Shown here in pieces: positions 1,347 to 46,958 of a DNA stretch of 64,000 nt; positions within the stretch are counted from its first letter, which is position 1, and each line of letters opens with the position of its first letter. The position numbers were made by a program, and so were the translations under genes. The stretch lies in contig JASFHF010000006.1 in assembly GCA_050123375.1 (NCBI GenBank), positions 2,309 to 66,308 on the forward strand, written 5' to 3'. The notes beneath the pieces were generated by a model. That model saw only the letters and a program-made list of their open reading frames with translations, was not told the origin of the DNA and searched no databases. The DNA comes from Gammaproteobacteria bacterium. Its GTDB lineage: Bacteria; Pseudomonadota; Gammaproteobacteria; UBA12402.

Positions 1347-1535
1347 ATGGTGATTAGTGAAACTAAAGATCATATGGTTATGTTGAAACCATATCTAGAA
1401 ATTCCGTTGTGCGAAAGATGGTTATTTGATAATAAAAAAGCTATGGAAAGACTTAAACGAGGATTGAAACATGCAGCTGATGGGCGTGTTGCAGAAAAAG
1501 GCAGCTTTGTTAAATTTGTTGATGATGCAGATTAA
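1347..1535 (+). pseudogene. possible Phd/YefM-family antitoxin remnant (C-terminal part only), stop overlaps ksgA start (TAATG)
   Basis: MVISETKDHMVMLKPYLEIPLCERWLFDNKKAMERLKRGLKHAADGRV resembles the YefM C-terminus (..[29 protein letters not shown]). The N-terminal third is missing and no toxin partner follows. Confidence 0.25.
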
Positions 1536-2428
1536 TGAGTAAAAGCGTATTTCACATACACCAACCGCGGAAGCGTTTTGGGCAGAATTTTTTGCAGGAT
1601 GAGGGGATAATTGCGCAGATTATTGCGGCAATTAATCCGCAAGAAAATGACTTGATGGTGGAAATTGGGCCGGGATTGGGTGCTTTGACTTGTGAATTGT
1701 TACCTAAGCTGCGAAAGTTGCATGTAATTGAATTTGATCGTGATTTGATTCCGCAGTTAAAGCAACATTGTGCGGATTTGGGTGAGTTAATTGTGCATCA
1801 GGCTGATGTTTTAGAATTTAATTTTTCGTCATTAATTACAACAGCCATGGATCCCGCGGTCAAGCCGCGGGATGACAGAATAAAAAATTCGCGGAATGAC
1901 AAAATGAGAGATTTGCGGGATGACACGAAAGAAAAAAAATTACGCGCGGTTGGTAATTTGCCGTATAATATTTCTTCGCCAATAATTTTTCATTTACTAA
2001 AATTTGCGCCGCTTATAAAAGATATGCATTTTATGCTGCAAAAAGAAGTTGTGGATCGTTTGAGTGCATCGGTTGGTACTAAAGCGTATGGTCGTTTAAC
2101 TGTGATGGTACAATATTTTTGTGAAGCCAGGAAATTATTTGATGTTTTGCCAGCTGCTTTTTATCCTAAACCAAAAGTGACTTCGAGTTTTGTTAGATTA
2201 GTTTCATATGAAAAATTACCTGTACAGGCAAAAGATTTTACTAAGTTTGCTGAAATAGTTAAAATTGCTTTTAATCAGCGCCGCAAAACTTTGCGTAATG
2301 CATTAAAATCAATAATTACAGCGAAAGAGTTGGAGCGTTTAGGAGTTGATCCTAAATTACGTCCAGAACAGCTAAGTGTGACAGATTATGTTAGAATTAG
2401 TAATAATAATGGATATCGGGGAAAGTAA
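1535..2428 (+). CDS. rsmA: 16S rRNA (adenine1518/1519-N6)-dimethyltransferase RsmA/KsgA, with ~30-aa in-frame insertion
   Basis: FGQNFLQDEGII...EIGPGLGALT...GNLPYNISSPIIF motifs. 297 aa versus ~270 expected. Extra segment AMDPAVKPRDDRIKNSRNDKMRDLRDDTKEKK is encoded by a palindromic repeat. Confidence 0.9.
   Translation: MSKSVFHIHQPRKRFGQNFLQDEGIIAQIIAAINPQENDLMVEIGPGLGALTCELLPKLRKLHVIEFDRDLIPQLKQHCADLGELIVHQADVLEFNFSSLITTAMDPAVKPRDDRIKNSRNDKMRDLRDDTKEKKLRAVGNLPYNISSPIIFHLLKFAPLIKDMHFMLQKEVVDRLSASVGTKAYGRLTVMVQYFCEARKLFDVLPAAFYPKPKVTSSFVRLVSYEKLPVQAKDFTKFAEIVKIAFNQRRKTLRNALKSIITAKELERLGVDPKLRPEQLSVTDYVRISNNNGYRGK
1846..1935. repeat. in-frame palindromic insertion element inside ksgA (ATCCCGCGG-tcaag-CCGCGGGAT hairpin plus 3x ~24-bp GCGGGATGACA repeats)
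   Basis: Perfect 9-bp-arm palindrome at 1851-1873. GCGGGATGACA-like motif at 1867, 1891 and 1914. The same palindrome occurs at 36941-37019 inside ygfA. Confidence 0.8.
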
Positions 2429-3391: not shown

Positions 3392-3540
3392 GACGGGACG
3401 GAGCTTCACTCATTAAAAGTTGTCGGGTCGCGAGCTTTACATGGTTACGAGGTAATAGCTAAATTCTTTGAGGGTCGGAGCTTTACATGATTACAAAGCA
3501 ACAAGCAAGGCCTTGTAATTATGTAAAGCTCGCGACCCAA
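3392..3540. repeat. family-A palindromic intergenic repeat (full copy 3470-3538 plus degenerate half-copies)
   Basis: GAGGGTCGGAGCTTTACATGATTACAAAGCAACAAGCAAGGCCTTGTAATTATGTAAAGCTCGCGACCC has ~25-bp inverted arms. Source of spurious ORF 3487..3693. Confidence 0.8.
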
Positions 3541-3547
3541 CAACCTT

Positions 3548-4906
3548 TTAAGATCTTTTCATCGCTTCGAAAAATTCATTATTGGTTTTGGTGGTGCGCA
3601 GACGGTCATATAAAAATTCAATTGCGGCTAATTCGTCCATTGGTTGTAATAATTTACGCAAGATCCACATTTTTTGTAGTTCATCAGCGCTAACCAAAAG
3701 TTCTTCACGACGCGTGCCGGAGCGGTTAATGTTAATTGCAGGAAATACGCGTTTTTCCGCGATACGTCGATCCAAATGGATTTCCATATTACCAGTACCT
3801 TTAAATTCTTCGTAGATAACTTCATCCATTTTGGAGCCGGTATCGATTAATGCTGTAGCTAAGATGGTTAAGCTTCCGCCTTCTTCAATGTTACGTGCAG
3901 CACCAAAGAAACGTTTAGGACGATGCAGCGCATTTGCATCCACACCACCAGTTAGAACTTTACCGGAAACTGGTACTACAGTGTTATACGCACGTGCTAA
4001 ACGGGTAATTGAGTCTAACAAAATTACCACATCGTGTTTGTGTTCCACTAGACGTTTAGCTTTTTCAATAACCATTTCTGCAACTTGTACGTGGCGAGTT
4101 GCTGGTTCGTCAAAAGTACTGGCGATTACTTCACCTTTAACTGAACGATCCATTTCGGTAACTTCTTCAGGACGCTCGTCGATTAATAACACCATTAAAT
4201 GACATTCTGGATGATTGCTTTCGATGGAATGAGCAATATTTTGCAGCATCATGGTTTTACCAGCTTTTGGCGGTGAAACGATTAAGCCACGTTGTCCTTT
4301 TCCAAAAGGGGCAACTAGATCAATGATTCTGGCTGTGATATCTGCAGTGCTGCCATTGCCTCGCTGCATTAGTAAGCGTTCATTGGCGAATAGTGGAGTG
4401 AGGTTTTCAAATAGAATTTTATTCTTGGCGCTATCTGGATCATCATAATTAATTTTATCAACTTTTAATGTGGCAAAATAACGTTCTGCTTCTTTCGGTG
4501 GACGAATTTGTCCGGAAATTGTATCGCCAGTACGTAAGTTGAAGCGGCGAATTTGACTAGGTGATACGTAAATATCATCAGGACCAGGTAAATAAGAACC
4601 TTCGGCAGAACGCAGAAAACCAAAGCCGTCAGGTAGAATTTCTAAAACTCCTTCGCCATAAATAGCTTCGCCATTTAGTGCGTGTGCTTTTAGGATTGAA
4701 AAAATTAAATCCTGCTTGCGCTGACGCACATTTTCTAAGCCAATTTTGTTGGCCATTTCAGTTAATTCCGCAGGAGATTTATGTTTCAGCTCTTGTAAGT
4801 GAAAAGTTTCCTTTTTTTTGTCAGTGGGTATTTTAGCGGTTTTTACTTTAGGACGTGTTACAGCTGTTTTAGCTGTGGGTTTATTAGTAGTTTTATCTTC
4901 TGGCAT
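3548..4906 (-). CDS. rho: transcription termination factor Rho with ~33-aa lysine-rich N-terminal extension
   Basis: [13 protein letters not shown], Walker [18 protein letters not shown], and full RecA-like domain present. trxA lies upstream on the same strand as in E. coli. Confidence 0.95.
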
Positions 4907-12213: not shown

Positions 12214-13410
12214 ATGCTGCAAGTATTAGCTAATTTTTGGCATTTATGCTGCACGGTCGGCAAACGCTGTATTGCGGATCGGTTAACGGGGGCGGCAGCA
12301 TCTTTAACTTTTACCACTTTATTGGCTTTAGTACCGTTAATTACAATTTGTATTGCAATTTTCTCTGCTTTTCCAATTTCGCATGCTATTGGTCATAACG
12401 TTTCACAATTTATTTATCAGAATTTTTTACCAACTTTTGGTAAAGTAGTCCAAAAATATCTACAGGATTTTGTAGTGCAGGCGGGTCGGTTATCTTTTCT
12501 TGGGATTATTGCTTTAGTTGTGACTGCAATTTTAATGATGTTAACAGTTGAACAAACATTTAATCAAATTTGGAAAGTTAGATATCGAAGATTAGAATTA
12601 AAATCTTTATTAGTTTATTGGGCAGTATTAAGTTTAGCGCCAATTTTTATTGGATTAAGTATTGCAGCTACTTCTTATGTTATTTCTTTGCCATTAGTTG
12701 TCGGAGCAGTAGCAAAACTTGGAATGAAAACAATTTTATTACACAGCGCACCGTGGATTTTTACCATATTGGTTTTGTGGTTGTTATATGTAATTGTGCC
12801 AAATTGTAAAGTTCCGATACGTTATGGTTTGGTTGGCGCAATAATTGCAACGCTTCTATTTCAAATGGTTAAAACTGGATTTATAATTTATATTAATCGT
12901 TTTGCAACTTATGGTTTTATTTATGGCGCTGTGGCAATTATACCAATTTTTTTATTGTGGGTTTATTTGTTGTGGTTGGTGGTATTATTTGGAGCTTTAA
13001 TCACAAATGTTTTAACAGTTTATTCTTATAGCGGAAGAGTGGGGAAATTTGATGGGTTTACTCATGCTTTTTTGTGGTTGGGTTATTTATGGCGCGCGCA
13101 GCAACAAGGAAAAAGTTTATCACTAAAACAATTGGCTTATACTTTGCGCGGGCATTATAAAATTGATATTTATTTGCAATTGCAGGCTTTGTTAAAAGCT
13201 AAATTTATTTCGATTACTGAAAATAATCGTTATATTTTATCACGTGATTTTTCTAAAACTACTTTAGCAGATTTGTATCAGGCTTTGCCGTGGAAATTGC
13301 CGCATGTAAAAGTTCATGAATTGTTTTCAGAAAAAATGCAGCAAGTTCTACAGGATGCGGATAAATCGGTGAATGAGAAGCTTAATGTTTCGTTAAGCGA
13401 ACTATATTAA
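12214..13410 (+). CDS. YihY/BrkB-family inner membrane protein
   Basis: AASLTFTTLLALVPLITICIAIFSAFP and multiple TM helices. C-terminal ~100-aa extension. AAGGAGGA RBS. Confidence 0.75.
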   Translation: MLQVLANFWHLCCTVGKRCIADRLTGAAASLTFTTLLALVPLITICIAIFSAFPISHAIGHNVSQFIYQNFLPTFGKVVQKYLQDFVVQAGRLSFLGIIALVVTAILMMLTVEQTFNQIWKVRYRRLELKSLLVYWAVLSLAPIFIGLSIAATSYVISLPLVVGAVAKLGMKTILLHSAPWIFTILVLWLLYVIVPNCKVPIRYGLVGAIIATLLFQMVKTGFIIYINRFATYGFIYGAVAIIPIFLLWVYLLWLVVLFGALITNVLTVYSYSGRVGKFDGFTHAFLWLGYLWRAQQQGKSLSLKQLAYTLRGHYKIDIYLQLQALLKAKFISITENNRYILSRDFSKTTLADLYQALPWKLPHVKVHELFSEKMQQVLQDADKSVNEKLNVSLSELY

Positions 13411-13417
13411 TATCTTA

Positions 13418-13960
13418 GAGGGTCGGAGCTTCACATGATTACAAAGCAACAGGCAGGGCATTGTAATTATGTGAATTTACATCCTTTTAGCTCCAAGTTT
13501 TTAATTATTCCCTCAGTTCTTATAAAATTTCTTAGAGGGTCGGAGCTTCACATGATTACAAAGCAACAGGCAGGGCATTGTAATTATGTGAATTTACATC
13601 CTTTTAGCTCCAAGTTTTTAATTATTCCCTCAGTTCTTATAAAATTTCTTAGAGGGTCGGAGCTTCACATGATTACAAAGCAACAGGCAGGGCATTGTAA
13701 TTATGTGAATTTACATCCTTTTAGCTCCAAGTTTTTAATTATTCCCTCAGTTCTTATAAATTTCTTTGAGGGTCGGAGCTTCACATGATTACAAAGCAAC
13801 AGGCAGGGCATTGTAATTATGTGAATTTACATCCTTTTAGCTCCAAGTTTTTAATTATTCCCTCAGTTCTTATAAAATTTCTTAGAGGGTCGGAGCTTCA
13901 CATGATTACAAAGCAACAAGCAGGGCATTGTAATTATGTGAAGCTCGCGACCCGAGTTGC
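13418..13960. repeat. tandem array of ~4.6 copies of a 117-bp unit derived from the family-A palindromic element
   Basis: Copies start at about 13418, 13535, 13652, 13769 (1-bp deletion) and 13885. Inter-copy sequence is identical, so this is not CRISPR. Only the last copy carries the right arm ...GTGAAGCTCGCGACCC. Produces spurious MITKQQAGHCNYV ORFs 13435..13788 and 13785..14189. Confidence 0.85.
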
Positions 13961-15232
13961 TTATGTTGTTATTTTGGTTTGCAAGAAATTTATCAGCTCA
14001 TCATTTTTAATTTGCGTTATGTTGGTATCTGTACGGGATTTATATTCAATCGTGCCGTTATCTAAACCTTTTTCACCAATGACTAAACGGTGTGGAATAC
14101 CAATTAGTTCCATGTCAGCAAACATTGCGCCAGGACGTTCGGCGCGATCATCAAATAAAACTTCAAAGCCTGCTTTAGTTAGTTTTTGATAAAGTGATTC
14201 TGCAGCAATTTTTACTCGTTCGGATTTGTTCATGGCAATTGGAATAATCGCGATTTGAAACGGCGCTATAATTTCCGGCCAAATAATTCCTTTATCATCA
14301 TGATGTTGTTCAATTGTTGCGGCAACGGTTCTGGAAATCCCGATGCCGTAACATCCCATTAACATTGGGATTGCTTGGCCTTGTTCATCCAATACAGTAG
14401 CCTTCATTGATTTGGAATATTTATCTCCAAGTTGAAAAATTTGTCCAACTTCGATGCCGCGTGCTAACTTTAATTTGCCTTTGCCGTCAGGACTTGGGTC
14501 GCCTTCTTTTACGTTGCCATGGTTAATCATTTCAACATTAGCGGCATAGTCGCTGGCATCACTGTATGCAATTGCGTCTTCACCAGATTCTGCAATTACC
14601 TGAAATTCTTGTGACATGTTGCCGCCTATTTGTCCGGTCGAGGCAATTACTGCGCGAAAATTTAGACCCAATCGGGTGAAAATTTTGTTGTAGGTCTCAT
14701 ACATTAAATCGTAGGTTTTTTGTAAACACTCTTTAGTTAAGTGAAAAGAATATGAGTCTTTCATCAAAAATTCACGGCTGCGCATTACCCCAAAACGCGG
14801 ACGAATTTCATCACGAAATTTAGTTTGAATTTGGTATAAGTTAATTGGCAGTTGTTTGTAACTATGCAATTCGTGTCGTGCAATTTCGGTAATTACTTCT
14901 TCGTGAGTTGGACCATAACAAAATTCGTGTTCGTGCCGATCAGTAATCCTTAATAACTCTTTACCATATTGATCCCAGCGTTCGGATTCTTTCCATAATT
15001 CGGCAGGAATCAGTGTAGGCAGCAATAATTCTTGCGCACCAGATGCATCCATTTCTTCGCGCACGATGTTTTCAACTTTGTGCAGCACGCGCCAACCAAG
15101 CGGTAACCAGGAATAAATTCCCGCGCTTAATTTGCGAATCATGCCGGCACGCAGCATTAATTTATGACTGATAAGTTCGGCATCCGTTGGTGTTTCTTTG
15201 AGTGTTGCTAGTAGGTATTTGCTGGTGCGCAT
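13961..15232 (-). CDS. proS: proline--tRNA ligase lacking the INS editing domain
   Basis: Collinear with E. coli ProS ([15 protein letters not shown]...). Jumps from ...DYAANVEM directly to [17 protein letters not shown], so the ~180-aa INS domain is absent. True start is M22 of the listed ORF with GGAGA RBS. Upstream codons belong to a palindromic repeat. Confidence 0.85.
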
Positions 15233-15235
15233 GGT

Positions 15236-15375
15236 GTCTCCAAGTGTTTTGGGGGTCGGGTCTTCACTCATTACATGATGCAACATGCAGTGCATATGTA
15301 ATGAGTGAAGACCCGACCCCGTATATTATTACCGCGTAACCATGTAAAGCTCGCGTCCCGCCAACATCCCATACA
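15236..15375. repeat. family-B palindromic repeat (GGGGTCGGGTCTTCACTCATTACATGATGCAACATGCAGTGCATATGTAATGAGTGAAGACCCGACCCC) plus family-A fragment
   Basis: Arms are near-perfect inverted repeats. The same family occurs at 22880-22990. Confidence 0.8.
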
Positions 15376-16148: not shown

Positions 16149-16199
16149 TATTTATAAATATTACCCGAGTCTTATCTATCAAACAAGGATATTATGAGT

Positions 16200-16405
16200 G
16201 TGGGGACGAGTCTTTATTAATTACAAAGCAATAAGCTAGATTCTTTGAGGGACGGAGCTTTACATAGTTACGGAGCAATAAGCAAGCTTCTTTAAGGGTC
16301 GGAGCTTCACATGATTACAAGGCAACAAACATGGTCTTGTAATTATGTGAAGCACACGACCCGACTACTTCATGCTTTGTAATTAGTAAAGACCTGCCCC
16401 CAAAT
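16200..16405. repeat. nested family-A palindromic repeats
   Basis: Outer GGGGACGAGTCTTTATTAATTACAAAGCA...TGCTTTGTAATTAGTAAAGACCTGCCCC encloses the inner GGGTCGGAGCTTCACATGATTACAAGGCAACA...GTGAAGCACACGACCC. Confidence 0.75.
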
Positions 16406-19953: not shown

Positions 19954-19994
19954 AGTTGAAGTTAGTTTGACTTATATCTCAGTTTTTACATAGT

Positions 19995-20190
19995 ACCTTA
20001 GAGGGACGGAGCTTTACATGATTACAAAGCAACAAACAGGGCATTGTAATTATGTAAAGCTCACGATCCGGGTTACCCAACTTCTTTTATCTATATCTCG
20101 GTTATTACATAGTACCTTAGAGGGACGGAGCTTTACATGATTACAAAGCAACAAACAGGGCATTGTAATTATGTAAAGCTCACGTCCCGT
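19995..20190. repeat. two tandem family-A palindromic repeats (~119-bp period)
   Basis: TTAGAGGGACGGAGCTTTACATGATTACAAAGCAACAAACAGGGCATTGTAATTATGTAAAGCTCACG(A/T)CCCG occurs twice. The second copy supplies a false N-terminus (MITKQQTGHCNYVKLTSR) to the pepP ORF. Confidence 0.8.
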
Positions 20191-21465
20191 ATGCTTATGG
20201 AGTTTTCTGCGAGACGAAAAAAGTTATTTGCAAAAATGCGGCCGCATAGTGTTGCAATTGTTTTTGCTGCTCCTCAGTATTTTCGCAATGGTGATGTAAC
20301 GTTTCCTTATCGCCAAAATAGCGATTTTTATTATTTAACTGGATTTACCGAACCTAATGCAGTTGCGGTTTTTGTTAAATCAACATCAGCAGAACAATAT
20401 GTGTTATTCAGTCAACCGAAGAATTTGATTAAAGAACAATGTTATGGTTTTCGTGTTGGCCAGGAAAAAGCTGTCGAAGTATATGGAGTTGATCAGGCAT
20501 ATTCAGTTGATGAAATACATAAACATATGCCGCAATTGTTACAGGATGTGCAAGCGGTATATTATCAGTTTCATCATCCATTACAATATAATAAGCTGAT
20601 AGATGAGTGGTTAGGTAAAAGAAATTGTGGGCCGTGGAAAATTAATTTAGCTGATATTGTTCATGAGATGCGTTTAATTAAAAGTCCAGCGGAAATTGGA
20701 TTATTAAAGCAGGCTGCGGAGATTACTGCGCACGCACATTTAAAAATTATGCAGCAATGTAAACCCAAAATGTATGAATATGAGTTAGTAGGAAAATTGT
20801 TCCATGAATATTATGTGCATGGTGCGCAAGCGGCCGCATTTCCGCCGATTGTAGCAAGCGGTTACAATAGTTGTGTTTTGCATTATGAAGAAAATAACCG
20901 ACAAATTCACGATGGTGATTTGGTGTTGGTTGATGCCGGATGTGAATATCAATATTATGCAGCAGATGTTGCGCGCACTTTTCCGGCGAATGGTAAATTT
21001 ACTCGCGAACAAGCGCTAATCTATGAAATTGTGTTATTAGCGCAACAAAAGGTTATAGAACAAATTAGGCCGGGCAGTAATTGGTATGATGGACAAAAGA
21101 TTGCTGTGCGAACTATTACAGAAGGTTTGCGTGATCTTGGAATTTTGCGCGGTAATGTTGATAAATTAATTAAGCAGCGAGCATATAAACCTTTTTATAT
21201 GCACAAAGTTAGTCATTGGTTGGGATTGGATTCTCACGATGTTGGTGCTTTTAAAATTCATGATCAAGAAACGCGGTTGCAGCCTGGTATGGTTTTAACC
21301 GTTGAGCCAGGAATTTATATTTTACCCAACATGAAAAATGTTGATGAAAAATGGTGGGGGATTGGTGTTCGTATCGAAGACGATTTGTTGGTGACAGAAA
21401 ATGGGCATGAGGTTTTAACTAATGCGGCACCGAAAACTCTCGCAGAAATTGAGGATATTTTGTGA
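20191..21465 (+). CDS. pepP: Xaa-Pro aminopeptidase PepP
   Basis: N-terminal AMP_N domain and M24 motifs (HWLGLDSHDVG, VLTVEPGIY, GIGVRIEDD). True start taken as MLMEFSARRKKLF after the repeat. Confidence 0.85.
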   Translation: MLMEFSARRKKLFAKMRPHSVAIVFAAPQYFRNGDVTFPYRQNSDFYYLTGFTEPNAVAVFVKSTSAEQYVLFSQPKNLIKEQCYGFRVGQEKAVEVYGVDQAYSVDEIHKHMPQLLQDVQAVYYQFHHPLQYNKLIDEWLGKRNCGPWKINLADIVHEMRLIKSPAEIGLLKQAAEITAHAHLKIMQQCKPKMYEYELVGKLFHEYYVHGAQAAAFPPIVASGYNSCVLHYEENNRQIHDGDLVLVDAGCEYQYYAADVARTFPANGKFTREQALIYEIVLLAQQKVIEQIRPGSNWYDGQKIAVRTITEGLRDLGILRGNVDKLIKQRAYKPFYMHKVSHWLGLDSHDVGAFKIHDQETRLQPGMVLTVEPGIYILPNMKNVDEKWWGIGVRIEDDLLVTENGHEVLTNAAPKTLAEIEDIL

Positions 21466-22879: not shown

Positions 22880-22990
22880 TCTCCGCAATGTTTTGGGGTG
22901 GGGTCTTCACTCATTACATGATGCAACATACAGTGCATATGTAATGAGTGAAGACCCGACCCCATGTAATAGCTCGCGTCCCGCGTGCAT
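22880..22990. repeat. family-B palindromic repeat between galT and galK
   Basis: GGGGTGGGGTCTTCACTCATTACATGATGCAACATACAGTGCATATGTAATGAGTGAAGACCCGACCCC followed by a family-A fragment GTAATAGCTCGCGTCCCGC. Confidence 0.8.
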
Positions 22991-22992
22991 TC

Positions 22993-24003
22993 TTACAATT
23001 TTCGTAGTCTTTCTGCAGCCCATTCTGCAGTAATATCCCGTTGTGGTTCGGCTAATAATTCATAGCCGGCGATAAATTTTTTAATTGTAGCGGAACGTAA
23101 TAATGGCGGATAAAAATGTGCGTGTAGCTGCCAATGTTCATTATTTTTATGGTTGGCTGGTTGTGCGTGCCAACCCATGGAATAAGGAAAAGAGCAATCA
23201 AACAAACGATCATATTTTTGTAATAACTGTTTTAAGATTTCTGCTAGTTGATTGCGCTGCTTATCATCTAAATTTGGTAGTCGTAGAATATGTTTTTTGG
23301 GTAATAATAAGGTTTCAAACGGCCACATTGCCCAAAATGGTACAACGACCAGCCAGTTTTCATTTTCTGCTACAATTCGTTCTTGTTGTTCTAATTCCAG
23401 TTGCACGTAATCTATTAGCATTGGAATTTGATTTTTTTGAAAATAACAGCGTTGTGCTGAATCTTCCTTCATAATTTCGTTTGGTAGAAAATTACTTGCC
23501 CAAATTTGCCCGTGCGGATGTGGGTTGGAGCATCCCATGATTGCTCCTTTGTTTTCGAATACTTGTACCGATTGATAAGTTTGTTCAAGTTCGTCAATTT
23601 GCCCGGCCCATAAATCAACTACTTTACGGATCGCAGGAACTTCCATGCTTGCCAGAGTTAGATTGTGTTGCGGAGAAAAGCAAATAACACGGCAAGTACC
23701 TTCGATTGGTTGAGCATGCAATAATGGATGAGTTTTAGTTATCTCAGTAGTTGTTTCCGGAATTAAAGCAGCAAAATCGTTGGTAAATGTAAATGTATCT
23801 TTATAGTTTGGGTTTTGTCTGCCGCCAGCGCGTTTATTTCCTGGACACAAATAGCAGTTTGGATCATATTCCGGCAGATTATTGCCAGTAGAAGTTTCTG
23901 TTTGCCCTTGCCATGGTCGTTGTGTTCGCTGTGGTGAAACTAAGATCCACCCATTAGTGAGTGGGTTGTAACGTCGATGTGGTCTATCTATTTTGTTTGT
24001 CAT
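22993..24003 (-). CDS. galT: galactose-1-phosphate uridylyltransferase
   Basis: [18 protein letters not shown], and the HPHGQIWA active-site His-Pro-His fit class I GalT. Confidence 0.85.
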
Positions 24004-24074
24004 TTGGTTAAAACGGTGATTTTTTACTAATTAATATTAATTATAGCTGGCTTAAAGTTAATTATCTATAGATA

Positions 24075-25463
24075 TTACTGGGAAGGGCGGGAAAAGCAGC
24101 TGCGTATTTTTGTAACTATCGTGGCAGCAGACTTTTCAATTTGTTTGAATAACGTATACAATGGTTTCACTTTATTATTGTATGTGGTTAACGACCAGTC
24201 ATTTTTGTTAGTTTGACTGCAAAGATTTGGCTTTTTGACTTTGCTTATTTTGTTTAGTTTATGATTTATAGTAGCACTGCTAGATTCATTATTTTTTTGC
24301 GGCTTTATTTTGTTAAGAAGAGATTCTATTTTTTCATAAGTTCTGTTTTTAAATCTGCCGCGCAGCTTGCTAAGTTGAGAGCGTATTTCTTTAGTTGGTT
24401 TGTTATTTGTGCTATGTTTTTCTGATATGTTTTGCATTATGATATTTATTGTATCATTAATTATTTTTATATTATTTTTTCTGGTTGTGGTTTTTTTAGT
24501 TAGAAAGTTAAAAAATTTATGCCAGTTTTGTGTGAATTTGGATTTACGATCCCAGTGTTGCTCATATTCATCTAAAGATTTTTCCAGTTCTTTTTTGAGT
24601 GCGGTTATATTTTCACATCTTATGAGATCTTTTTTTATGTCAGCAGTCTTAAGTGTAAATTGTTCGTTTTTACATTTTGGAGCATAAGTTTTGATAGAAT
24701 TTAGATAAGAGTTGATGGTGTTGCCGGTTATATTCGCCAAAAAAACTACATATTTATATGGTTGATCGTTATCTTGGTTTTTATTGGTTTGTTCTTTAGT
24801 TAATTTATTCTTGAAATTAGTTTTTATTATTTTTTTAACTTCTTTTATTTCTTTTTCTATATCAATTTTTTGTGCTTCTAAAAACAGATCTACAAGTTGT
24901 CTAGTATTTTGTGTAAGCCGTTCAATCTCGTTTTTTTCAAGTGGCTTAATTTCTTTTTTTTCAAGCAGGCCAGCATTTTTTTGTGCGCGCAGTATAATAT
25001 CTTCTGGTACAAATGACCTAATCTTATCTGGTGTAAGTAATGGTGATTCAGTATTCTTTGGTATAAATTGTTTAATCTCATCTGATGTAGTAAGACTTTT
25101 AAGATCATCTAGTTTAAATTTTCCTGTTTGCATTCTTTGGATAAGTTCTTTTTTATTCTTTTGTGCTTCGAGTGATATGTCGTAAAGATTGAGTAGTGTA
25201 TCTATATATTTGCTTATTGTTTTAGATGATTGATTAAATGTGGATAAAGCGTCCTCGTTATTTTTTAATAATGTGCGTAATGTTTTGTGAAATTCTTTTG
25301 CATGTTGGGGTGACTTGGTTGTATAAAATCCCGTGAAATTATATTTTTTCCCATTGATAGCTAGTGACATACCACAATTAATGTCACTTATTAATCTGCT
25401 CATTGAATCTTCAATTGTATTGCCATTATTTGCTTGGTTAGATTTTGTATTTTTTGTGAGCAT
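24075..25463 (-). CDS. hypothetical Lys/Asn-rich effector-like protein, paralog A
   Basis: Shares blocks with the 26410..28824 protein: LVDLFLEAQKIDIEKEIKEVKKIIKTNFKNKL vs LIKLFLKAQGIKKINKEINTIKKIIGKYKFKNKL; YKYVVFLANIT vs YYYVIFLSKIT; SKLRGRFKNRTYEKIESLLNKIK vs NKLRGKCKALTYNNNVKKLLKKIE. Extreme AT content. Confidence 0.55.
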   Translation of the reverse strand: MLTKNTKSNQANNGNTIEDSMSRLISDINCGMSLAINGKKYNFTGFYTTKSPQHAKEFHKTLRTLLKNNEDALSTFNQSSKTISKYIDTLLNLYDISLEAQKNKKELIQRMQTGKFKLDDLKSLTTSDEIKQFIPKNTESPLLTPDKIRSFVPEDIILRAQKNAGLLEKKEIKPLEKNEIERLTQNTRQLVDLFLEAQKIDIEKEIKEVKKIIKTNFKNKLTKEQTNKNQDNDQPYKYVVFLANITGNTINSYLNSIKTYAPKCKNEQFTLKTADIKKDLIRCENITALKKELEKSLDEYEQHWDRKSKFTQNWHKFFNFLTKKTTTRKNNIKIINDTINIIMQNISEKHSTNNKPTKEIRSQLSKLRGRFKNRTYEKIESLLNKIKPQKNNESSSATINHKLNKISKVKKPNLCSQTNKNDWSLTTYNNKVKPLYTLFKQIEKSAATIVTKIRSCFSRPSQ

Positions 25464-25537
25464 CGCAGGTCTCCTTGGGAAATTATTTTATTGTTATTTT
25501 AAGATTATTCTCAACGAGTTATGAATTAGGTTCTGAT

Positions 25538-25640
25538 AAGATGGTTGCATAACATAAGGATATAGCCGGTGAATACCCATGTTTTGGCATTAGAACAGGT
25601 GCTATTATCTTGTGTCATGACATATACCCCTTGTTGCTAG
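25538..25640 (-). pseudogene. duplicated 5' fragment (promoter plus ~20 codons) of the small membrane protein gene at 29061..29306
   Basis: Minus-strand ATGACACAAGATAATAGCACCTGTTCTAATGCCAAAACATGG... encodes MTQDNSTCSNAKTW.., ~85% identical to 29306-29250. Upstream homology continues about 40 bp. Confidence 0.6.
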
Positions 25641-25901
25641 AATTACTCTGATTGTAGCTTATTTTGGCATCTTTTTTAAGCGTTTTTGATTAACACTATG
25701 TTTTTAAAAACCTTTATAAAACAGCGGGTTATATACTTGCTTTGTAACTCCTCAAAAAAATCGGGGTAAAACAAACAAAAACAGCCAGGATTCCGGCTTA
25801 GCAAGTTGGATTGGATTGTATGTATCAACTAATTCGTTGATACATATTGCGTAGGCCCTGTTTCATTTGTCGTTTGTTAGAGCGGTATTTAAATGTTTCG
25901 T

Positions 25902-26201
25902 TTACATTTTTGACTTAATTTGTATTTGCTCACTGTGAGGGGGCTGGTGATTGTTTTGCTGATATTTAAGGTTATCAAGATCTGTGTTACACTGCTTTAG
26001 TATTAAGTTATTTCTGCGCAATAGATTTCTAAATTCTTTTAGTTCCTCTGATATTTCGTTATGATCATACTTCTTAAGAATGGCACTAATATAATGTACC
26101 AAATAGTTAATCGTTTGTTCAATTTCTTTTTTGTTTTTTATTAAAGACTCGCGTTTTTCGTGTATTGATTTAGTAGTATCATCTGACGATTTGAAATACA
26201 T
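25902..26201 (-). CDS. hypothetical small protein
   Basis: 99-aa ORF in the AT-rich spacer between the paralogs. No support beyond ORF length. Confidence 0.15.
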   Translation of the reverse strand: MYFKSSDDTTKSIHEKRESLIKNKKEIEQTINYLVHYISAILKKYDHNEISEELKEFRNLLRRNNLILKQCNTDLDNLKYQQNNHQPPHSEQIQIKSKM

Positions 26202-26409
26202 TATATTTTACCTCAAAATAGATACTTAATACTTCTGTTTCCATATTTTAGATATGGTGTTTATTCTACTGGTTATAATCTTATTGTCAATGGATTTTTT
26301 GGTAACTCAATAAATGAAGGAGAAATTGCGTGCTATAATATAGTAGATATAATATAAGCTCTTATTGAACTGGAGAAATTTATGTTTTTTATTAAGTTAT
26401 TCCTAGTTT

Positions 26410-28824
26410 TTAAGGTTTTACATTTTTTGGTATCATGCTATTGTCTTCACATTTATTTTTTGGGTGCTTTTTAGATTTAGGGGTGGCTATTGTAATTATC
26501 TCCGTTTTAGGATTTTTCTTAAGTTTGTTCTCCATTTTCTTAGTCCGTTTCTTAATTTTTTTGATTGTTTTCTTTATATCTATTTTGGTGGTTTTTTTCT
26601 TTTGAGCTTCATGGTTTAATTGGTCAAAAATTGTTTTAGTATTTGTTGAATTTTGTCTTTTTTCTTTGTTTAAACTAAATTTATTCAGCAGTGTGTTGAT
26701 CTCGTTTAAAATATTATAATATTCGTTGTTGGGTTTGTTTTTCACACTCTTAATAGCGTCATCGATTATTTTACTAAATTTAGCGAAGCCATTTTTGTCA
26801 TCGGTATTTTGGTATTTAAATACGCTATTAGAGAAGATGCTAATTTCGAGGCGGTCAATTTTTGTAATAAGGTTCATTATTTGCTTTTTTTCATTTTTAT
26901 TTTTTGAGGCATGTCTGTATTTTTCAAGCTTATTTATTGAAAAATTGATAATCCACTTTATGTGGTTTTTAGGAGTATTATTTTGTAATGGTTGTTCTTT
27001 ATTAAGTGTCAAAATTGCATCATAATAGTTTTTTAAACTACTTCCCAAGCAAGAAAAATATATTTTGTCAAACACATAATTTACATTATTTGCATTTTCT
27101 ACATTTTCGAATCCTTCCGTGATACTGTTTAAATACTGTGTTTCTACTTCGATTAATTCTTTTAATTGTGATTGTGGGCAGTGTTTAAATAATAGTGATT
27201 TAGATTTATTTAAAATGTTACGATATTTGCTGGGTTTGTTTTTCCAATTTTCCACATGTTTGTTAAAGTCTGTTTCTATCGATTTTGTAATAGCGTTGTT
27301 AATTATTCTAAGCAAATCAACATGCGTTTTTATGGGTTCATTATTTTCAGAGGGTTTAAGATTTTTTAATAATTGCTGAGCTTGTTGTTCTCTTTCTTTT
27401 CTAGATTTTGTCTTAAAAAATCTTGCTAAGAACGACCCGCGTTTGTATTTGTTAATTTTGCTAATTGTTAAGTTTGCAATCATATCAAGTGGATATACCC
27501 ATTCTATCTTCTTGAGAAGTTTTTTTACATTATTGTTGTAAGTTAGGGCTTTACATTTACCGCGCAGCTTGTTAAGTGTTACACGTATTTGGTTAGATAT
27601 ATTTGGTGTATTTTTTTTCTTTGTTTTACTTTTTGTGTTCTTGTTCTTACCTTTTTGCTCTATGTTATTTTTTGTTCTCCTGATTTCTTTTCTAATTATA
27701 TCTAGTGTTTCGTTAATTGTTTTTTTATTATTTTCTTTGGTTTGTTCTATCGAGGATTTCAGCAGCCATTTTGTGAAAAGGTATTTTTTAGATTTATAGA
27801 GTTCATAATTTTCTTTAAGCTTGTTCATTACTTGATTAAGCTTGAGTAAGGCACGATAGCGTCTTATCAGTGGTGTTTTATTGATGTTCTTAATAGCTTC
27901 TGATATATCAGTGTAGATTGTTTTTGATGTGATTTCAGCTTTCTTAAGTATTAAGTGTGGATTGCCGTCTTCTTGCTCATATTTGATTTTTCCTAGGCAT
28001 GGCATAGTTTTGATTTTATTTTCCAATGTATGTGGTAATTGCATATATGAGGTTATATCTCCTTGCAGTTCAATCATATTATCGTGTATTGTGATTTTTC
28101 TTTCCATTTTGTTGAAAGAGAAGGGGCAATTTTTTTTACCACTATCGATTGTCTCTATGACAATATCTGTTGCAGCGGAGGAAAGTATTAGCTGGTCATA
28201 ATTTTTGATGAAATTTAACAGAGTTATGTATTTTTTATCTGTTATTTTGCTCAAAAAAATCACATAATAATATAGATGGTCATTGTTTTTTTTGTTTAGT
28301 TTATTTTTAAACTTATATTTTCCTATAATTTTTTTAATTGTATTGATCTCTTTATTTATCTTTTTTATACCTTGTGCCTTTAAAAAAAGCTTAATAAGCT
28401 CTATATGATGATGATATTTTTTATGCTTTTCATTTTCACCAACTTTTTTTCCTTGTATTTCATTTTTGTATTCATTTTCAAACGTCTTCAGATTTATGGG
28501 TTTGTTTATTTTGAGAAATTCATGTGCCGTCTCATAAAGTTTGGTTACCCCTTGGGTTGCGTCCTTATCGAATCCTAAAAATTTTACACTAGGGTTTTTA
28601 TTTATAACTAGGTTCGTCTTGCGTCTAATATCTTTTAATATTTGTTCTATGGCATTTTCAATCGTGTCATTTTTTTCATTCGTATATTTTGAAATGTAGC
28701 CCCATTCTTTTGTGAATTGTACAAATTTATATGGGTGATATTTCTCATCACGCAGATTTATTTTATATTTTAGATCTACTTCGTCTTTTTTTATATTGAG
28801 TTTTTTCTTCTTGCCTTCGAGCAT
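26410..28824 (-). CDS. hypothetical Lys/Asn-rich effector-like protein, paralog B (804 aa)
   Basis: Paralogous blocks shared with 24075..25463 (see that entry). Extreme AT content and low-complexity K/N-rich segments. Confidence 0.55.
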   Translation of the reverse strand: MLEGKKKKLNIKKDEVDLKYKINLRDEKYHPYKFVQFTKEWGYISKYTNEKNDTIENAIEQILKDIRRKTNLVINKNPSVKFLGFDKDATQGVTKLYETAHEFLKINKPINLKTFENEYKNEIQGKKVGENEKHKKYHHHIELIKLFLKAQGIKKINKEINTIKKIIGKYKFKNKLNKKNNDHLYYYVIFLSKITDKKYITLLNFIKNYDQLILSSAATDIVIETIDSGKKNCPFSFNKMERKITIHDNMIELQGDITSYMQLPHTLENKIKTMPCLGKIKYEQEDGNPHLILKKAEITSKTIYTDISEAIKNINKTPLIRRYRALLKLNQVMNKLKENYELYKSKKYLFTKWLLKSSIEQTKENNKKTINETLDIIRKEIRRTKNNIEQKGKNKNTKSKTKKKNTPNISNQIRVTLNKLRGKCKALTYNNNVKKLLKKIEWVYPLDMIANLTISKINKYKRGSFLARFFKTKSRKEREQQAQQLLKNLKPSENNEPIKTHVDLLRIINNAITKSIETDFNKHVENWKNKPSKYRNILNKSKSLLFKHCPQSQLKELIEVETQYLNSITEGFENVENANNVNYVFDKIYFSCLGSSLKNYYDAILTLNKEQPLQNNTPKNHIKWIINFSINKLEKYRHASKNKNEKKQIMNLITKIDRLEISIFSNSVFKYQNTDDKNGFAKFSKIIDDAIKSVKNKPNNEYYNILNEINTLLNKFSLNKEKRQNSTNTKTIFDQLNHEAQKKKTTKIDIKKTIKKIKKRTKKMENKLKKNPKTEIITIATPKSKKHPKNKCEDNSMIPKNVKP

Positions 28825-37390: not shown

Positions 37391-38531
37391 TTTTTTTAAG
37401 ATAGTTTTTGTAATTAAGTATTTTAATTTGTTCGGTATATGGAATATCTTTGCCGTTATAAAGCAAATAGCCATGATCATTTGGTTTCAGTAAGTCTTCT
37501 ATAGCTTTAATCATGCGGGGGTGGAAAGTTTCACCGCTTTTGATTTCAAACAAATCTCTATGGGTTTTGTAGTCGATAATTAAATCTATTTCAATTCCGT
37601 GGGTAGTGCGGTAATAAAATAGTTCGGTATGTGTATCATTGTGTTTTTTGCGCTTTAAAATTTCACTAATAATATAATTTTCAAATAAACTGCCTGCCAT
37701 AGGTCCTTGATAAAGTTGTTTGGTGTTTTCAATGCCTGTTAAATAGGAAACTATGCCAGTGTCATAAAAAAATATTTTTGGACTTTTCACAATACGCTTG
37801 CCGTAATTATTATAATATGGTGGTAATAAAAAAATAATATATGAAGCTTCAAGAATCGAAATCCATTGTTTGATAGTTTTTACATCTACACCTAAATCGT
37901 TAGCATAATGGGAAAAGTTCATTAATTGGCCGGTGTTAGCAGCTAATAAACTTATTAAGCGTCTAAAGTCTCGAATGTTTCCAATATTGCTTAATGTTTT
38001 TACGTCTTTGGTAAGGTATGTCTCAAGATATGATGAATACCATGGTTTGAATAATTTATATTTTTTTTCTACTAACTCAGGGTAGCATCCTTTAACAATT
38101 GCATCGTCGTGTAAGTTATTAGGTATTTCGTTAAATTGATATGGCAATAAAGTTAACAAGCCGATGCGTCCAGCTAATGTTTCGGTAATGCCTTTAACAA
38201 AGTTGAATTGACTAGATCCGGTTAATATAAATTTCCCATGATTAGCTCGGTCATTATCAACCGCAATTTTTATGTAATTAAATATTTCAGGTGCTTTTTG
38301 TACCTCATCGAAAATTATTTTGTTATTATAAATTCGCATAAAACGTTCAGGATCATTTTGAAACATATCGATTGTTTGGTAATCATCAAAAGTAACATAT
38401 TGATAATTTGGCATAGAATGCAATAGCATAGTCGATTTACCAGATTGGCGTGGGCCGGTAATGCCAATTACAGAGAAAAAATCCACATATTCATTTAAGC
38501 TAGTTTCAAGCACACGGTGGGTATACGGCAT
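37377..38531 (-). CDS. AAA-family ATPase (AAA_14 + DUF4143 architecture)
   Basis: Walker A GITGPRQSGKST, Walker B IIFDEVQ, and C-terminal DUF4143-like region. Confidence 0.7.
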   Translation of the reverse strand: MPYTHRVLETSLNEYVDFFSVIGITGPRQSGKSTMLLHSMPNYQYVTFDDYQTIDMFQNDPERFMRIYNNKIIFDEVQKAPEIFNYIKIAVDNDRANHGKFILTGSSQFNFVKGITETLAGRIGLLTLLPYQFNEIPNNLHDDAIVKGCYPELVEKKYKLFKPWYSSYLETYLTKDVKTLSNIGNIRDFRRLISLLAANTGQLMNFSHYANDLGVDVKTIKQWISILEASYIIFLLPPYYNNYGKRIVKSPKIFFYDTGIVSYLTGIENTKQLYQGPMAGSLFENYIISEILKRKKHNDTHTELFYYRTTHGIEIDLIIDYKTHRDLFEIKSGETFHPRMIKAIEDLLKPNDHGYLLYNGKDIPYTEQIKILNYKNYLKKTKKS

Positions 38532-43780: not shown

Positions 43781-44291
43781 TTTTTTGCCTTGGCGTGAAT
43801 CATTGCAGAAACGACAGCGGCGTAATTTTATTTATAGTATCGTATTGAGTTTATTAATTGTCATAATAATTATGCTAGGTATATATTGTGAATTGCATAG
43901 TCGAATCAAAATACAGATTAGCCGTAACAAAATTTTATGCAAGTATAATGATAAATTACGTTCCAAAAAGCAGCAATATCTAACTGTGCAAAAACAGCGT
44001 AATTTATTAATAAGTAAATTGCAGTTGATCGTGAAAATGCAGCATCAGGGTGAAGAATTGACGCAAATACTGCAAGTTTTATTTGATTATTTTGATAGTG
44101 GATGTTGGCTTGATGCAGTAATTTTGCAAAATAATCAACTTACTGCGAAATTTATAGCTAAAAATTATGATATGAGTGATAGGATAGCGAAAATATTTGC
44201 TCATCTGGATTTTTTAACGCGTCCTAAAATTAATATGTCAGCAGGTACTGATTCTTTTATAAAGTTTACGGTAAATTGTTTATTTAAATAG
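43764..44291 (+). CDS. pilN: type IV pilus assembly protein PilN
   Basis: MMIKINFLPWRESLQKRQRRNF followed by a TM helix is the PilN signature. Confidence 0.75.
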   Translation: MMIKINFLPWRESLQKRQRRNFIYSIVLSLLIVIIIMLGIYCELHSRIKIQISRNKILCKYNDKLRSKKQQYLTVQKQRNLLISKLQLIVKMQHQGEELTQILQVLFDYFDSGCWLDAVILQNNQLTAKFIAKNYDMSDRIAKIFAHLDFLTRPKINMSAGTDSFIKFTVNCLFK

Positions 44292-44301
44292 GAAAAGTTA
44301 A

Positions 44302-44790
44302 ATGGCAAAAACATTAATAATATTATTTGTTGATATATTGTTTTTTATATTACTGTATTTTTTGCTGATAATGCCGCGGCTTGAATCATTGCATTTTATG
44401 CGGGCTAAGGAAGAAAGATTGAAACAAAGTTATGTACAGTCATATCGTAAAGTTCAGCAACTAACTTTGTTAAAACAACAACTGGGCAAGTTAGATAAAA
44501 TCAATAATAAGGCAAAAACTTTTGTTTTTAGGCGGCAATCTATAGTTATGCATACTATTGCTGATATAGCGCAACAATTTAATATACAAGTAGAGTCAAT
44601 TAAATTTAAAGAAAAATATCAAATTGGTAAATTATGTTTGTATCCAATTTTGATTAATTTTGATGGTAATCATGAGGATTTACAAGCATTCACGGCAGTA
44701 TTGTCAGAACATTTTTTGTTAACAGGTGTCCAATTAACTAGAAAACAAAATAACTATTTTGGCTGTCTTAATTTGGTTTTAATTGCATGA
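44302..44790 (+). CDS. pilO: type IV pilus assembly protein PilO (short)
   Basis: N-terminal TM plus coiled coil. Position in operon. Confidence 0.6.
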   Translation: MAKTLIILFVDILFFILLYFLLIMPRLESLHFMRAKEERLKQSYVQSYRKVQQLTLLKQQLGKLDKINNKAKTFVFRRQSIVMHTIADIAQQFNIQVESIKFKEKYQIGKLCLYPILINFDGNHEDLQAFTAVLSEHFLLTGVQLTRKQNNYFGCLNLVLIA

Positions 44791-45197
44791 AATTATTTGA
44801 TGTTACAGTTATGATTTTAATTGCTGCGGTTTTTTTGTTAACCGGATGTCGTAAAGTTTCTGATACTCGTGATTTATATGTGTATATTAATAAAGTGCAA
44901 CGGCAGCCAATAGCGCCAATTAAACCTTTGCCAAAATTTTTATTTACTTCATTTAAGCGCACGCAATTAACTGATTGCAAAGCAAGATACTCTGTACATG
45001 CATTTCGGTTAATAGGAATTATTTTAAATAAACAAAGGCATTGGGCGTTGGTTTTATTGCCGAATCATCAAGTAATCAAAGTGCAGAAAGATGATTTAAT
45101 TGGTAGAGAACAGGCGAAAGTTAAACAGATTACTGTAACTGAGGTTGAATTGTTAGTGAATAATAAAGTGTTGATTTTAAAATGCTTTGCTCAATAA
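44787..45197 (+). CDS. pilP: type IV pilus assembly lipoprotein PilP
   Basis: Lipobox LLTGC. Position between pilO and pilQ. Confidence 0.6.
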   Translation: MKLFDVTVMILIAAVFLLTGCRKVSDTRDLYVYINKVQRQPIAPIKPLPKFLFTSFKRTQLTDCKARYSVHAFRLIGIILNKQRHWALVLLPNHQVIKVQKDDLIGREQAKVKQITVTEVELLVNNKVLILKCFAQ

Positions 45198-45220
45198 TCG
45201 TTGAAATATGGAGGAAGTAA

Positions 45221-46423: not shown

Positions 46424-46947
46424 AACATCCTAGAGTGATATTTTTGGTTGGGCCGTTTGGCGCAGGTAAATCTACTATTGGGAGGGCGTTAGCCCGAGCT
46501 TTAGATTTACAGTTTTATGATACTGACCGAATCATCGAAAAACGTCTGGGTGTAGATTTAAGCTGGATTTTTGATATCGAAGGTGAGGCTGGATTTAGGC
46601 GGCGCGAAACGGAAATCTTAGATGAATTATCACAATTATCCAACGTAATTATTTCCACTGGCGGCGGAACTATTTTATTACCGGAAAATCGGCGTTTATT
46701 TAAAGATAGAGGATTGGTGATTTATCTGAAAACTACGATTAAACAACAATTACAACGAACTCAGCGTAATAAATATAATCGTCCAACTTTGCGGGTAGAT
46801 AATATTGAAGATTGTTTAAAATCTTTTCATAACGAGCGTGCGCCATTGTATGAAGAAGTAGCTGATGTGGTTTTTTCGACAAATCGTCGATCTTATAAGA
46901 TTGTGGTGAAAGAAATCCTGCAGTATTTGAAAGAAATTGAGTTTTAA
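46420..46947 (+). CDS. aroK: shikimate kinase
   Basis: IFLVGPFGAGKSTIGRALARAL...DTD matches the AroK signature. Follows pilQ as in the Pseudomonas pilMNOPQ-aroK-aroB locus, but aroB is absent here. Confidence 0.85.
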   Translation: MKHPRVIFLVGPFGAGKSTIGRALARALDLQFYDTDRIIEKRLGVDLSWIFDIEGEAGFRRRETEILDELSQLSNVIISTGGGTILLPENRRLFKDRGLVIYLKTTIKQQLQRTQRNKYNRPTLRVDNIEDCLKSFHNERAPLYEEVADVVFSTNRRSYKIVVKEILQYLKEIEF

Positions 46948-46958
46948 GAAGGTAAGTT

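Follow-up and report, generated by a model that had tools for sequence, protein, structure and literature searches.

CGTC-tagged palindromic repeats carried in frame within ksgA and ygfA of an uncultured gammaproteobacterium

The repeats considered here, three copies of a short GC-rich palindrome lying in frame within the genes ksgA and ygfA, come from a 64,000-nt stretch of contig JASFHF010000006.1 (assembly GCA_050123375.1, Gammaproteobacteria bacterium, UBA12402), the whole of which we call the window. Their closest described relatives are the CGTC-tagged repetitive extragenic palindromic (REP) sequences, defined by a CGTC tag (often TGTC, also CCTC), an 8–9 bp stem starting with AT, a loop of 4–5 nt and a CCA tail, and found mostly as inverted dimers (PMC3733652). 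One family of these, CGTC-4, has been equated with the Rickettsia palindromic element RPE-4 of Rickettsia conorii (Di Nocera, De Gregorio & Rocco 2013, BMC Genomics 14:522, PMC3733652). The presence of CGTC and GTAG REPs inside known genes is already documented, and the intragenic CGTC-4 copies of R. conorii encode the peptides AIPRLDRGIQ, DTVVKPRCD (in dnaE), WILRSSRGMT (in nuoL) and VIPWLDHGIQ...CGMT (from a dimer in ampG) (PMC3733652).

Two further literatures deal with the same kind of sequence. For the Ssn-related motif (SRM), to which the Neisseria NTS repeats belong, the search pattern HGTCWYN(0-2)YYVSBRHN(0-5)WNVSBRGN(0-2)RNCYNB has been published, together with a set of associated proteins, the Ssn, which are 94-aa single-domain GIY-YIG nucleases (cd10448) that bind the NTS/SRM hairpin as single-stranded DNA only and cut one strand a few nucleotides upstream of CGTC (Chenal et al. 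2025, Nat Commun 16:2388). This activity has been demonstrated for Neisseria and Wolbachia pairs only, and 2% of the Neisseria NTS lie inside genes (Chenal et al. 2025). From the Rickettsia side, the R. japonica genome paper describes ATGAC-rich "extended RPE-4" regions and inserts in solvent-exposed areas, and orthologs carrying different types among RPE-4, -6 and -7 at the same site have been read as hot spots or as a sign of common origin, with RPE-1 to RPE-3 considered of separate origin (PMC3767692).

The element in the window belongs to this described family (CGTC-tagged REP, RPE-4 type, Ssn-related motif) and is not a new class. Since the family has already been described and intragenic occurrence is a known property of it, the window supplies a clean new example and not a new kind of element. 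We consider it quite probable that the window elements are CGTC-tagged REP/SRM copies whose spread was linked to an Ssn-type nuclease and whose survival in genes was filtered by reading frame and by loop position.

The three window copies

The window has three matches to the palindrome CCCGCGG-N5-CCGCGGG (1853–1871, 36945–36963 and 36995–37013), whereas 100 dinucleotide-preserving shuffles of it gave none. The conserved unit is longer than this palindrome and asymmetric, with 28–30 nt of the form (C/T)GTC-ATCCCGCGG-CTTGA-CCGCGGGAT-CCA (written as single-stranded DNA, CGTCATCCCGCGGCTTGACCGCGGGATCCAG). The full 28-mer, GGATCCCGCGGTCAAGCCGCGGGATGAC, is found at 1849–1876 (+) and 36940–36967 (−) without a mismatch and at 36991–37018 (+) with two, both in the loop. 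The copies and their host genes are as follows.

1535..2428, plus strand: ksgA/rsmA, the first host gene (16S rRNA dimethyladenosine transferase), 297 aa, with an open reading frame (ORF) that stays open through the insert
1844..1930, plus strand: in-frame insert in ksgA, 87 nt or 29 codons (A104–K132), from the ortholog alignment, boundary uncertain by 1–2 codons
1847..1877, minus strand: complete REP/SRM unit in ksgA, TGTC-ATCCCGCGG-CTTGA-CCGCGGGAT-CCAT (tag, first arm of the 9-bp stem, 5-nt loop, second arm, CCA tail)
1866..1925, plus strand: 24-nt tandem array in ksgA (Tandem Repeats Finder: period 24, 2.5 copies, 80% matches)
36725..37390, plus strand: ygfA, the second host gene (5-formyltetrahydrofolate cyclo-ligase, 5-FCL), 221 aa from ATG, frame intact
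36935..37030, plus strand: in-frame insert in ygfA, 96 nt or 32 codons (M71–I102), an inverted REP dimer with a 21-nt spacer and short flanks
36939..36968, plus strand: left REP unit in ygfA, CGTC-ATCCCGCGG-CTTGA-CCGCGGGAT-CCA, translated (P)SSRGLTAGS
36990..37019, minus strand: right REP unit in ygfA, TGTC-ATCCCGCGG-TTTAA-CCGCGGGAT-CCA, plus-strand translation LDPAVKPRDD

All three units share the order ATCCCGCGG, 5-nt loop, CCGCGGGAT, CCA, and each is tagged, by CGTC at 36939–36942 (+) and by TGTC on the minus strand at 1874–1877 and 37016–37019. The tag, the 9-bp stem beginning with AT, the 5-nt loop and the CCA tail are those by which a CGTC REP is recognized, and the units fit the 9-bp-stem, 5-nt-loop type of that class (families 3 and 4), which includes CGTC-4, that is, RPE-4. 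The published SRM pattern is matched by two of the three units, at 1847–1877 (−) and 36989–37019 (−), and is missed by the unit at 36939 (+) solely at its final B position, where an A stands; in 100 simulated sequences the pattern was matched 0.04 times on average.

Four of the six frames of the unit are free of stop codons, giving WIPRSSRGMT, DPAVKPRDD, VIPRLDRGI and SSRGLTAGS, and the remaining two contain TGA. A single unit folds as a single-stranded DNA hairpin with a free energy of about −12 kcal/mol (z = −5.5 to −5.8 against shuffled controls), and the ygfA pair, an inverted dimer with its tags turned outward, folds as one long hairpin of −34 to −35 kcal/mol (z about −8). When the 28-mer was sought with up to 3 mismatches and the half-unit with 2, only the sites already named were found in the window. 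Scanned in full against Rfam with gathering thresholds, the window gave no match, so that the repeat does not belong to a curated RNA family; viral contigs searched for the palindrome likewise gave 0 matches and hence no sign of a phage origin.

Insertion status, alleles and loop placement

Read against their nearest orthologs in alignment, the extra residues of KsgA and YgfA are real in-frame insertions. In KsgA, the 29 residues A104–K132 have no counterpart in a homologue 79% identical (P0004) or in any more distant ortholog, and shorter versions of the insert are present in proteins that are 89% (P0002) and 74% (P0003) identical. The insert, flanked by ..EFNFSSLITT and ..KLRAVGNLPYNIS, is composed of an ATGAC-rich extension and a complete REP unit, the plus-strand translation of which is MDPAVKPRDD. 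The repeated element of the array is the 3' half-unit CGCGGGATGACA, or a one-mismatch variant of it, followed by a 12-nt spacer, with half-units CGCGGGATGACA, CGCGGAATGACA and TGCGGGATGACA starting at 1866, 1890 and 1914. The exact window protein is annotated as RsmA with PF00398 in a public Gammaproteobacteria metagenome-assembled genome (MAG), and the more distant search matches include a Coxiella sp. MAG (DG_40).

In nucleotide sequence, the ksgA palindrome is perfect in the window, carries one mismatch (CCTGCGG) in one relative (L001) and is decayed (GGATCCTGCGGTCGAGCTGCGGGGTGAT) in another (L003); a third relative (L004), aligned with these two filled alleles, has an empty site. A 24-nt indel gives the window one extra (middle) unit relative to both filled relatives, consistent with slippage. 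The ksgA insert was inherited by at least three lineages, and its unit decays like the surrounding gene, the unit core being 82% and the gene 76% identical in nucleotides between the window and L003. The perfect state of the window palindrome was considered as proof of selection and rejected, 0 changes against about 3 expected being numbers too small to prove selection on it. A target-site duplication was also sought at this insert, and the weak 6-nt similarities found there (AATTAC; CAATAG in L003) are not taken as evidence of one.

The E. coli KsgA chain aligns to the window protein in two blocks, query 4–101 and 134–290 against chain 4–101 and 106–262, leaving 32 query residues where E. coli has 4. 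In the AlphaFold2 model (predicted local distance difference test, pLDDT, 90.9), residues 105–135 form a coil between helix 98–104 and the GNLPY-bearing strand 136–141, with block pLDDT values of 80, 61, 51 and 88 against about 97 for the rest of the chain. For YgfA, the corresponding model has a coil at 69–103 with pLDDT 54–62, inside a core with pLDDT 95–98. Both inserts are thus predicted to fall in unstructured, low-confidence loops of otherwise confident models. In each gene, then, the insert is lacking outside the clade, the frame is kept and the predicted location is a loop, which is what marks an in-frame protein-coding palindrome.

These results bear on a preliminary description, made from the window sequence, which had placed the hairpin once in ksgA and twice, inverted, in ygfA, had noted three repeats of about 24 bp in ksgA, and had held that both elements keep the reading frame and encode a common peptide, DPAVKPRDD. 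The pattern search, with no match expected by chance, the Tandem Repeats Finder and half-unit matches, the two open host frames (1535–2428 and 36725–37390) and the translations agree with it on each count. Its placement of the KsgA insert between conserved blocks is likewise seen in the EFNFSSLITT and KLRAVGNLPYNIS flanks. The size that it gave, about 30–35 aa, holds for YgfA, with 32, and is slightly too high for KsgA, where the ortholog alignment gives 29. Its central proposal, entry in frame in the manner of the Rickettsia elements with the addition of loop peptides, is upheld by the nearest orthologs, which do not have the residues, by the filled, decaying and empty alleles, and by the low-pLDDT coils; in both proteins the alignments and models put the extra residues between core elements.

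KsgA is the site of similar additions elsewhere. A KsgA homologue (P0022) has the C-terminus ..FRGLTAESRI, apparently an extension derived from a repeat, and for R. conorii KsgA (RC1022) a CGTC-1 dimer is listed at the N-terminus (MFYWIPAFTGMT) (Di Nocera 2013 Additional file 3, PMC3733652). Taken with the window insert, these two cases bring the unrelated lineages with a repeat-decorated KsgA to at least three, each with the addition at a position of its own.

The ygfA site has a less orderly record. The exact window protein is annotated as 5-FCL with PF01812, and residues M71–I102 are missing from the closest homologues (P0123–P0125 and P0127), present in two others (P0122 and P0126) and represented by a decayed form in a third (P0128), so distributed that the insert is patchy over the gene tree. 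DNA comparison was made between the window, a syntenic empty allele 82% identical in nucleotides (L126), which reads ATT TTA ACT TCA GGC AAA AAT at the insert site, and L125. In two filled relatives (L122 and L123) the insert is bracketed by an imperfect direct repeat of about 15 nt, the copies of which are closer to each other than to the empty-site sequence. In the genome encoding P0128 (L124, 2255–2300), the left side of the site is occupied by a different, decayed REP type (TGTCATTCTGAGCCGCAGGCGAAGAGTC, peptide CHSEPQAKS) and the right side by a decayed CGTC-4-like unit. Between lineages, finally, the REP units are 83–100% identical, the spacer 29–54% and the remaining gene 67–80%. As a separate observation on this neighborhood, a 384-aa ORF on the opposite strand (37377–38531, minus) shares 14 nt with the 3' end of ygfA, and the 384-aa gene at the same position in L126 is called AAA_14 + DUF4143, the neighbor thus being kept in the empty-site relative.

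These four features of the ygfA site (the patchy tree, the direct repeats of about 15 nt, the foreign REP type, and units kept at consensus beside a randomized spacer) are hard to reconcile with one simple history. A hot spot for insertion, lateral spread through recombination and concerted evolution are each capable of explaining them. Because of them one might also entertain, tentatively and as something on balance unlikely, that the ygfA site records an active sequence-homogenizing process and not one old neutral insertion. If this were true, whether through Ssn-initiated homing, gene conversion or repeated targeted re-insertion, the filled and empty ygfA alleles would be a first concrete footprint of CGTC REP/SRM movement, comprising target duplication, unit boundaries and conversion tracts.

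The same conservation invites the thought that the copies are not neutral relics at all, having been kept for a benefit that the DNA hairpin gives its host, be it Ssn-dependent control of recombination or transformation, of the kind proposed for the Neisseria NTS, or an effect on transcription or mRNA. The high identity of the ygfA units relative to gene and spacer speaks for this, as does the window ksgA unit, which is a perfect consensus copy although the insert predates a split at 76% nucleotide identity, and the NTS/Ssn system is known to affect transformation in N. meningitidis (Chenal et al. 2025). Gene conversion by other genomic copies or recent re-insertion would, however, explain the conservation equally well; the ksgA unit of L003 has decayed at about the gene rate, and most close orthologs do without the insert with no apparent consequence. 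As for an effect through RNA, SsnA is inactive on RNA (Chenal et al. 2025), and no terminator-type T-run follows the hairpins. We regard a host benefit as decidedly unlikely.

Since the window derives from a MAG, and repeats are classic points of misassembly, it might be asked whether the inserts were created in assembly or binning, for example where a repeat led to a chimeric join. Both KsgA and YgfA, however, are each found as the exact protein on two contigs from independent sources; filled alleles were assembled independently in L001 and L002 (two JGI samples), L003 (a Logan run), L122 and L123; and the frames and the flanking gene halves are colinear with orthologs. Such an artefact has next to no probability.

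The repeat and a GIY-YIG gene in other genomes

A palindrome scan for ATCCCGCGG-N5-CCGCGGGAT, run over one genome per species and with figures taken from the matches listed, finds the repeat in at least 117 genome stretches. The hosts among the matches listed are mainly uncultured Gammaproteobacteria, with Legionella, Tatlockia, Coxiellaceae, Kangiella, Sedimenticolaceae, Rickettsiales, other Alphaproteobacteria and "Deltaproteobacteria" MAGs besides. Canonical asymmetric flanks, that is, TGTC (62) or CGTC (28) on one side and a CC(A) tail on the other, accompany 90 of the 136 matches listed with full context, and 62 of these 90 canonical copies have the loop CTTGA. Six outward-tagged inverted dimers of 76–84 nt, like that in ygfA, are among the matches listed, as are several loci with extra 3' half-units behind a full unit, like that in ksgA, and several MAGs have at least 4–7 separate repeat-bearing stretches each. 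Most of these copies are intergenic; in-frame copies occur in Pfam-confirmed genes for MnmE, a Ser/Thr kinase, an SDR, AsnB, an M24 peptidase and Mfd. The raw counts of matches are inflated by a coding palindrome in high-GC Actinomycetota and Planctomycetota MAGs (L020, L041, L079, L096 and L107), where it lies bare, without tag and tail, inside one conserved ORF of about 470 aa, and which we set aside as unrelated.

The window itself holds three copies, and the dispersed family posited in the preliminary description is borne out for these many other genomes, where the unit is multi-copy. The resemblance to Rickettsia palindromic elements noted there has proved closer than was suggested, the anatomy being that of a CGTC REP and the peptides being the same as those of R. 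conorii CGTC-4 = RPE-4 (PMC3733652). In the sister genome whose KsgA is 89% identical (L001), an intergenic repeat lies at 1730–1775, 10 bp upstream of the polA start, with a half copy, CGTCATCCCGGCCC, before it. This polA-adjacent copy is absent at the corresponding window positions, 860–900, so that gain or loss of a repeat has taken place after the separation of the two genomes.

The distribution disposes of the notion that the extra residues are an ancestral protein-level loop, in which the palindrome would be incidental. That the ksgA insert is common to three lineages is what such a loop would lead one to expect. The identical 28-mer, however, is mostly intergenic in dozens of unrelated genomes, the closest orthologs do not have the extra residues, the loops are predicted to be disordered, and the same unit, in differing frames and orientations, is shared by two proteins unrelated to each other. 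The intergenic copies, the insert-free closest orthologs and the predicted disorder effectively refute this reading, which is scarcely credible.

When ORFs were clustered over about 120 repeat loci (about 0.9 Mb), the sole recurrent small gene family adjoining the repeats, at a median distance of 14 bp, was one of 95–98 aa proteins with the signature FYVYILAS..GTLY[IV]GVT..L..R...HK and the GIY-YIG domain PF01541. By tblastn over these loci, a repeat lies within 6–160 bp of 8 of 10 such genes, and in four loci (L029, L050, L086 and L100) the gene is flanked by repeats on both sides. In Kangiella aquimarina DSM 16071 (NZ_KB893650.1, L089 1215–1661), a GIY-YIG (PF01541) gene of about 95 aa at 1215–1502 is flanked by, or abuts, the identical repeat. 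On sequence grounds, the repeat-adjacent GIY-YIG genes match the published ssnA-SRM association.

This bears directly on whether the repeats might be classical GTAG-type REP/REPIN sequences moved by RAYT, the IS200/IS605-like HUH tyrosine transposase. Their general look, a short GC-rich hairpin arranged in inverted dimers with short spacers, is that of REPs, and the folding of the ygfA dimer into one long hairpin is REPIN-like. The tag, however, is CGTC/TGTC and not GTAG; CGTC repeats have been reported without association with tyrosine transposase genes (PMC3733652); and over the 0.9 Mb surveyed the GIY-YIG family alone recurs beside the repeat. In the ORF clustering of about 120 loci, with no dedicated Y1_Tnp hidden Markov model scan run, no recurrent transposase-like family was found beside the repeats. 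We reject a RAYT/REPIN identity on the tag and on the neighboring genes, and regard it as very improbable.

Proposed route into genes and comparison with known systems

The reading that we prefer, that of CGTC-tagged REP/SRM copies spread in connection with an Ssn-type nuclease and retained under constraints of frame and loop, would run as follows. An Ssn-type nuclease would act on transiently single-stranded DNA, starting the spread or homogenization of the repeat, and host repair or recombination would complete the events so begun. Survival of a copy in an essential gene would then need an insert length divisible by three, a frame belonging to the four without stops (WIPRSSRGMT, DPAVKPRDD, VIPRLDRGI or SSRGLTAGS) and a permissive site in a surface loop. 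The encoded repeat peptide is probably without function.

Several points weigh against this account. A GIY-YIG hydrolase alone cannot rejoin DNA. No GIY-YIG or ssn gene was found within the 64-kb window by tblastn with three GIY-YIG queries, and the repeats beside GIY-YIG genes elsewhere vary in their orientation (inverted, direct, or on one side only), unlike those of a classical insertion sequence. In the window all three copies are intragenic, as against mostly intergenic copies elsewhere and 2% genic NTS, a difference that with n = 3 may be chance. Family 4 is inferred over family 3 from stem and loop lengths and from shared peptides. Mobility of the CGTC REP/SRM has, moreover, never been demonstrated, and an IS-like origin has only been hypothesized (Chenal et al. 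2025).

With this case the in-frame "protein-coding palindrome," of which Rickettsia offers the best-known examples, is extended to an uncultured gammaproteobacterial lineage of low GC, and three literatures are connected, RPE-4, CGTC-4 REP and SRM being one repeat under three names. For annotators, it means that DPAVKPRDD, SSRGLTAGS, WIPRSSRGMT and VIPRLDRGI are to be read as repeat-derived decoration and not as domains. The ksgA and ygfA series of filled, decaying and empty alleles, together with repeat-flanked Ssn-like genes such as that of K. aquimarina DSM 16071, can be used on the question of how the repeat spreads, and this cultured type strain would be a convenient experimental system for this SRM variant.

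The window carries other repeats as well. An abundant, unrelated intergenic repeat with the core GGGTCGGAGCTTTACATGATTACAAAGCAACAAGCA is present in 13 window copies, with no SRM-motif or Rfam match, at 3439–3571, 13405–13986, 16187–16395, 19970–20221, 31680–31812 and 32481–32692, and the family includes a tandem array with a period of 117 bp (13405–13942). Two 81-nt near-perfect palindromes, at 15248–15328 and 22891–22971, are 93% alike (GGGGTCGGGTCTTCACTCATTACATGA...), and a similar GGGGTC...GACCCC long hairpin stands at 2431–2536, directly after the ksgA stop codon; these look like MITE-like (miniature inverted-repeat transposable element) or terminator-like elements of another family. Further tandem repeats lie at 32807–32956 (15 nt, about 7 overlapping registers) and at 50323–50470 (four copies of a 30-nt unit, the last three identical). 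Two blocks of markedly lower G+C content, 24001–28000 and 44001–52000, have 29–31% against about 36% elsewhere in the window and could mark acquired DNA.

Among known systems, CGTC-4, which is RPE-4, is the nearest. The R. conorii element is reportedly due to Ogata and colleagues in 2002, and the window repeat resembles it in its terminal CGTC/TGTC tag, its 9-bp stem starting with AT, its 5-nt loop and CCA tail, the inverted dimer in ygfA (the prevailing form of CGTC REPs), the occasional in-frame copies in housekeeping genes with the peptides xIPRLDRGIx, DxxVKPRxD and WIxRSSRGMT, and the placement of inserts in solvent-exposed regions. It differs from R. conorii CGTC-4 in its host, an uncultured gammaproteobacterium of ~36% GC and not a Rickettsia, and in the state of its units, which are GC-rich and undecayed (stem CCCGCGG) where AT-shifted variants are seen in the R. 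conorii peptides. Both the ksgA extension rich in ATGAC and the ygfA site, patchy and of mixed type, mirror what has been observed for Rickettsia RPE-4, -6 and -7 (PMC3767692).

With SRM/NTS, the window repeat shares a directional hairpin that has CGTC as its upstream tag and a C following the palindrome, as well as its fit to the SRM motif (Chenal et al. 2025), and in other genomes the identical repeat flanks a single-domain GIY-YIG gene of ~95 aa, as in the context of ssnA. Its stem, ATCCCGCGG/CCGCGGGAT, is unlike that of Neisseria NTS, ATTCCCGCG/GCGGGAAT. The GTAG REPs and REPINs with their RAYT, said to have been described by Nunvar in 2010 and by Bertels and Rainey in 2011, offer a more distant parallel, in which a short extragenic palindrome rich in GC likewise goes with inverted doublets and a repeat-flanked single-copy associated gene; they differ in the tag (GTAG there) and in the class of enzyme (an HUH Y1 transposase there, a GIY-YIG hydrolase here), and are less conserved across taxa than the CGTC repeats. 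Rickettsia RPE-1, -2 and -3, said to have been reported by Ogata and colleagues in 2000, are alike in being palindromic elements in frame in ORFs with surface peptides that the proteins tolerate, and unlike in their length of about 100–150 bp and in having no CGTC/ATGAC signature.

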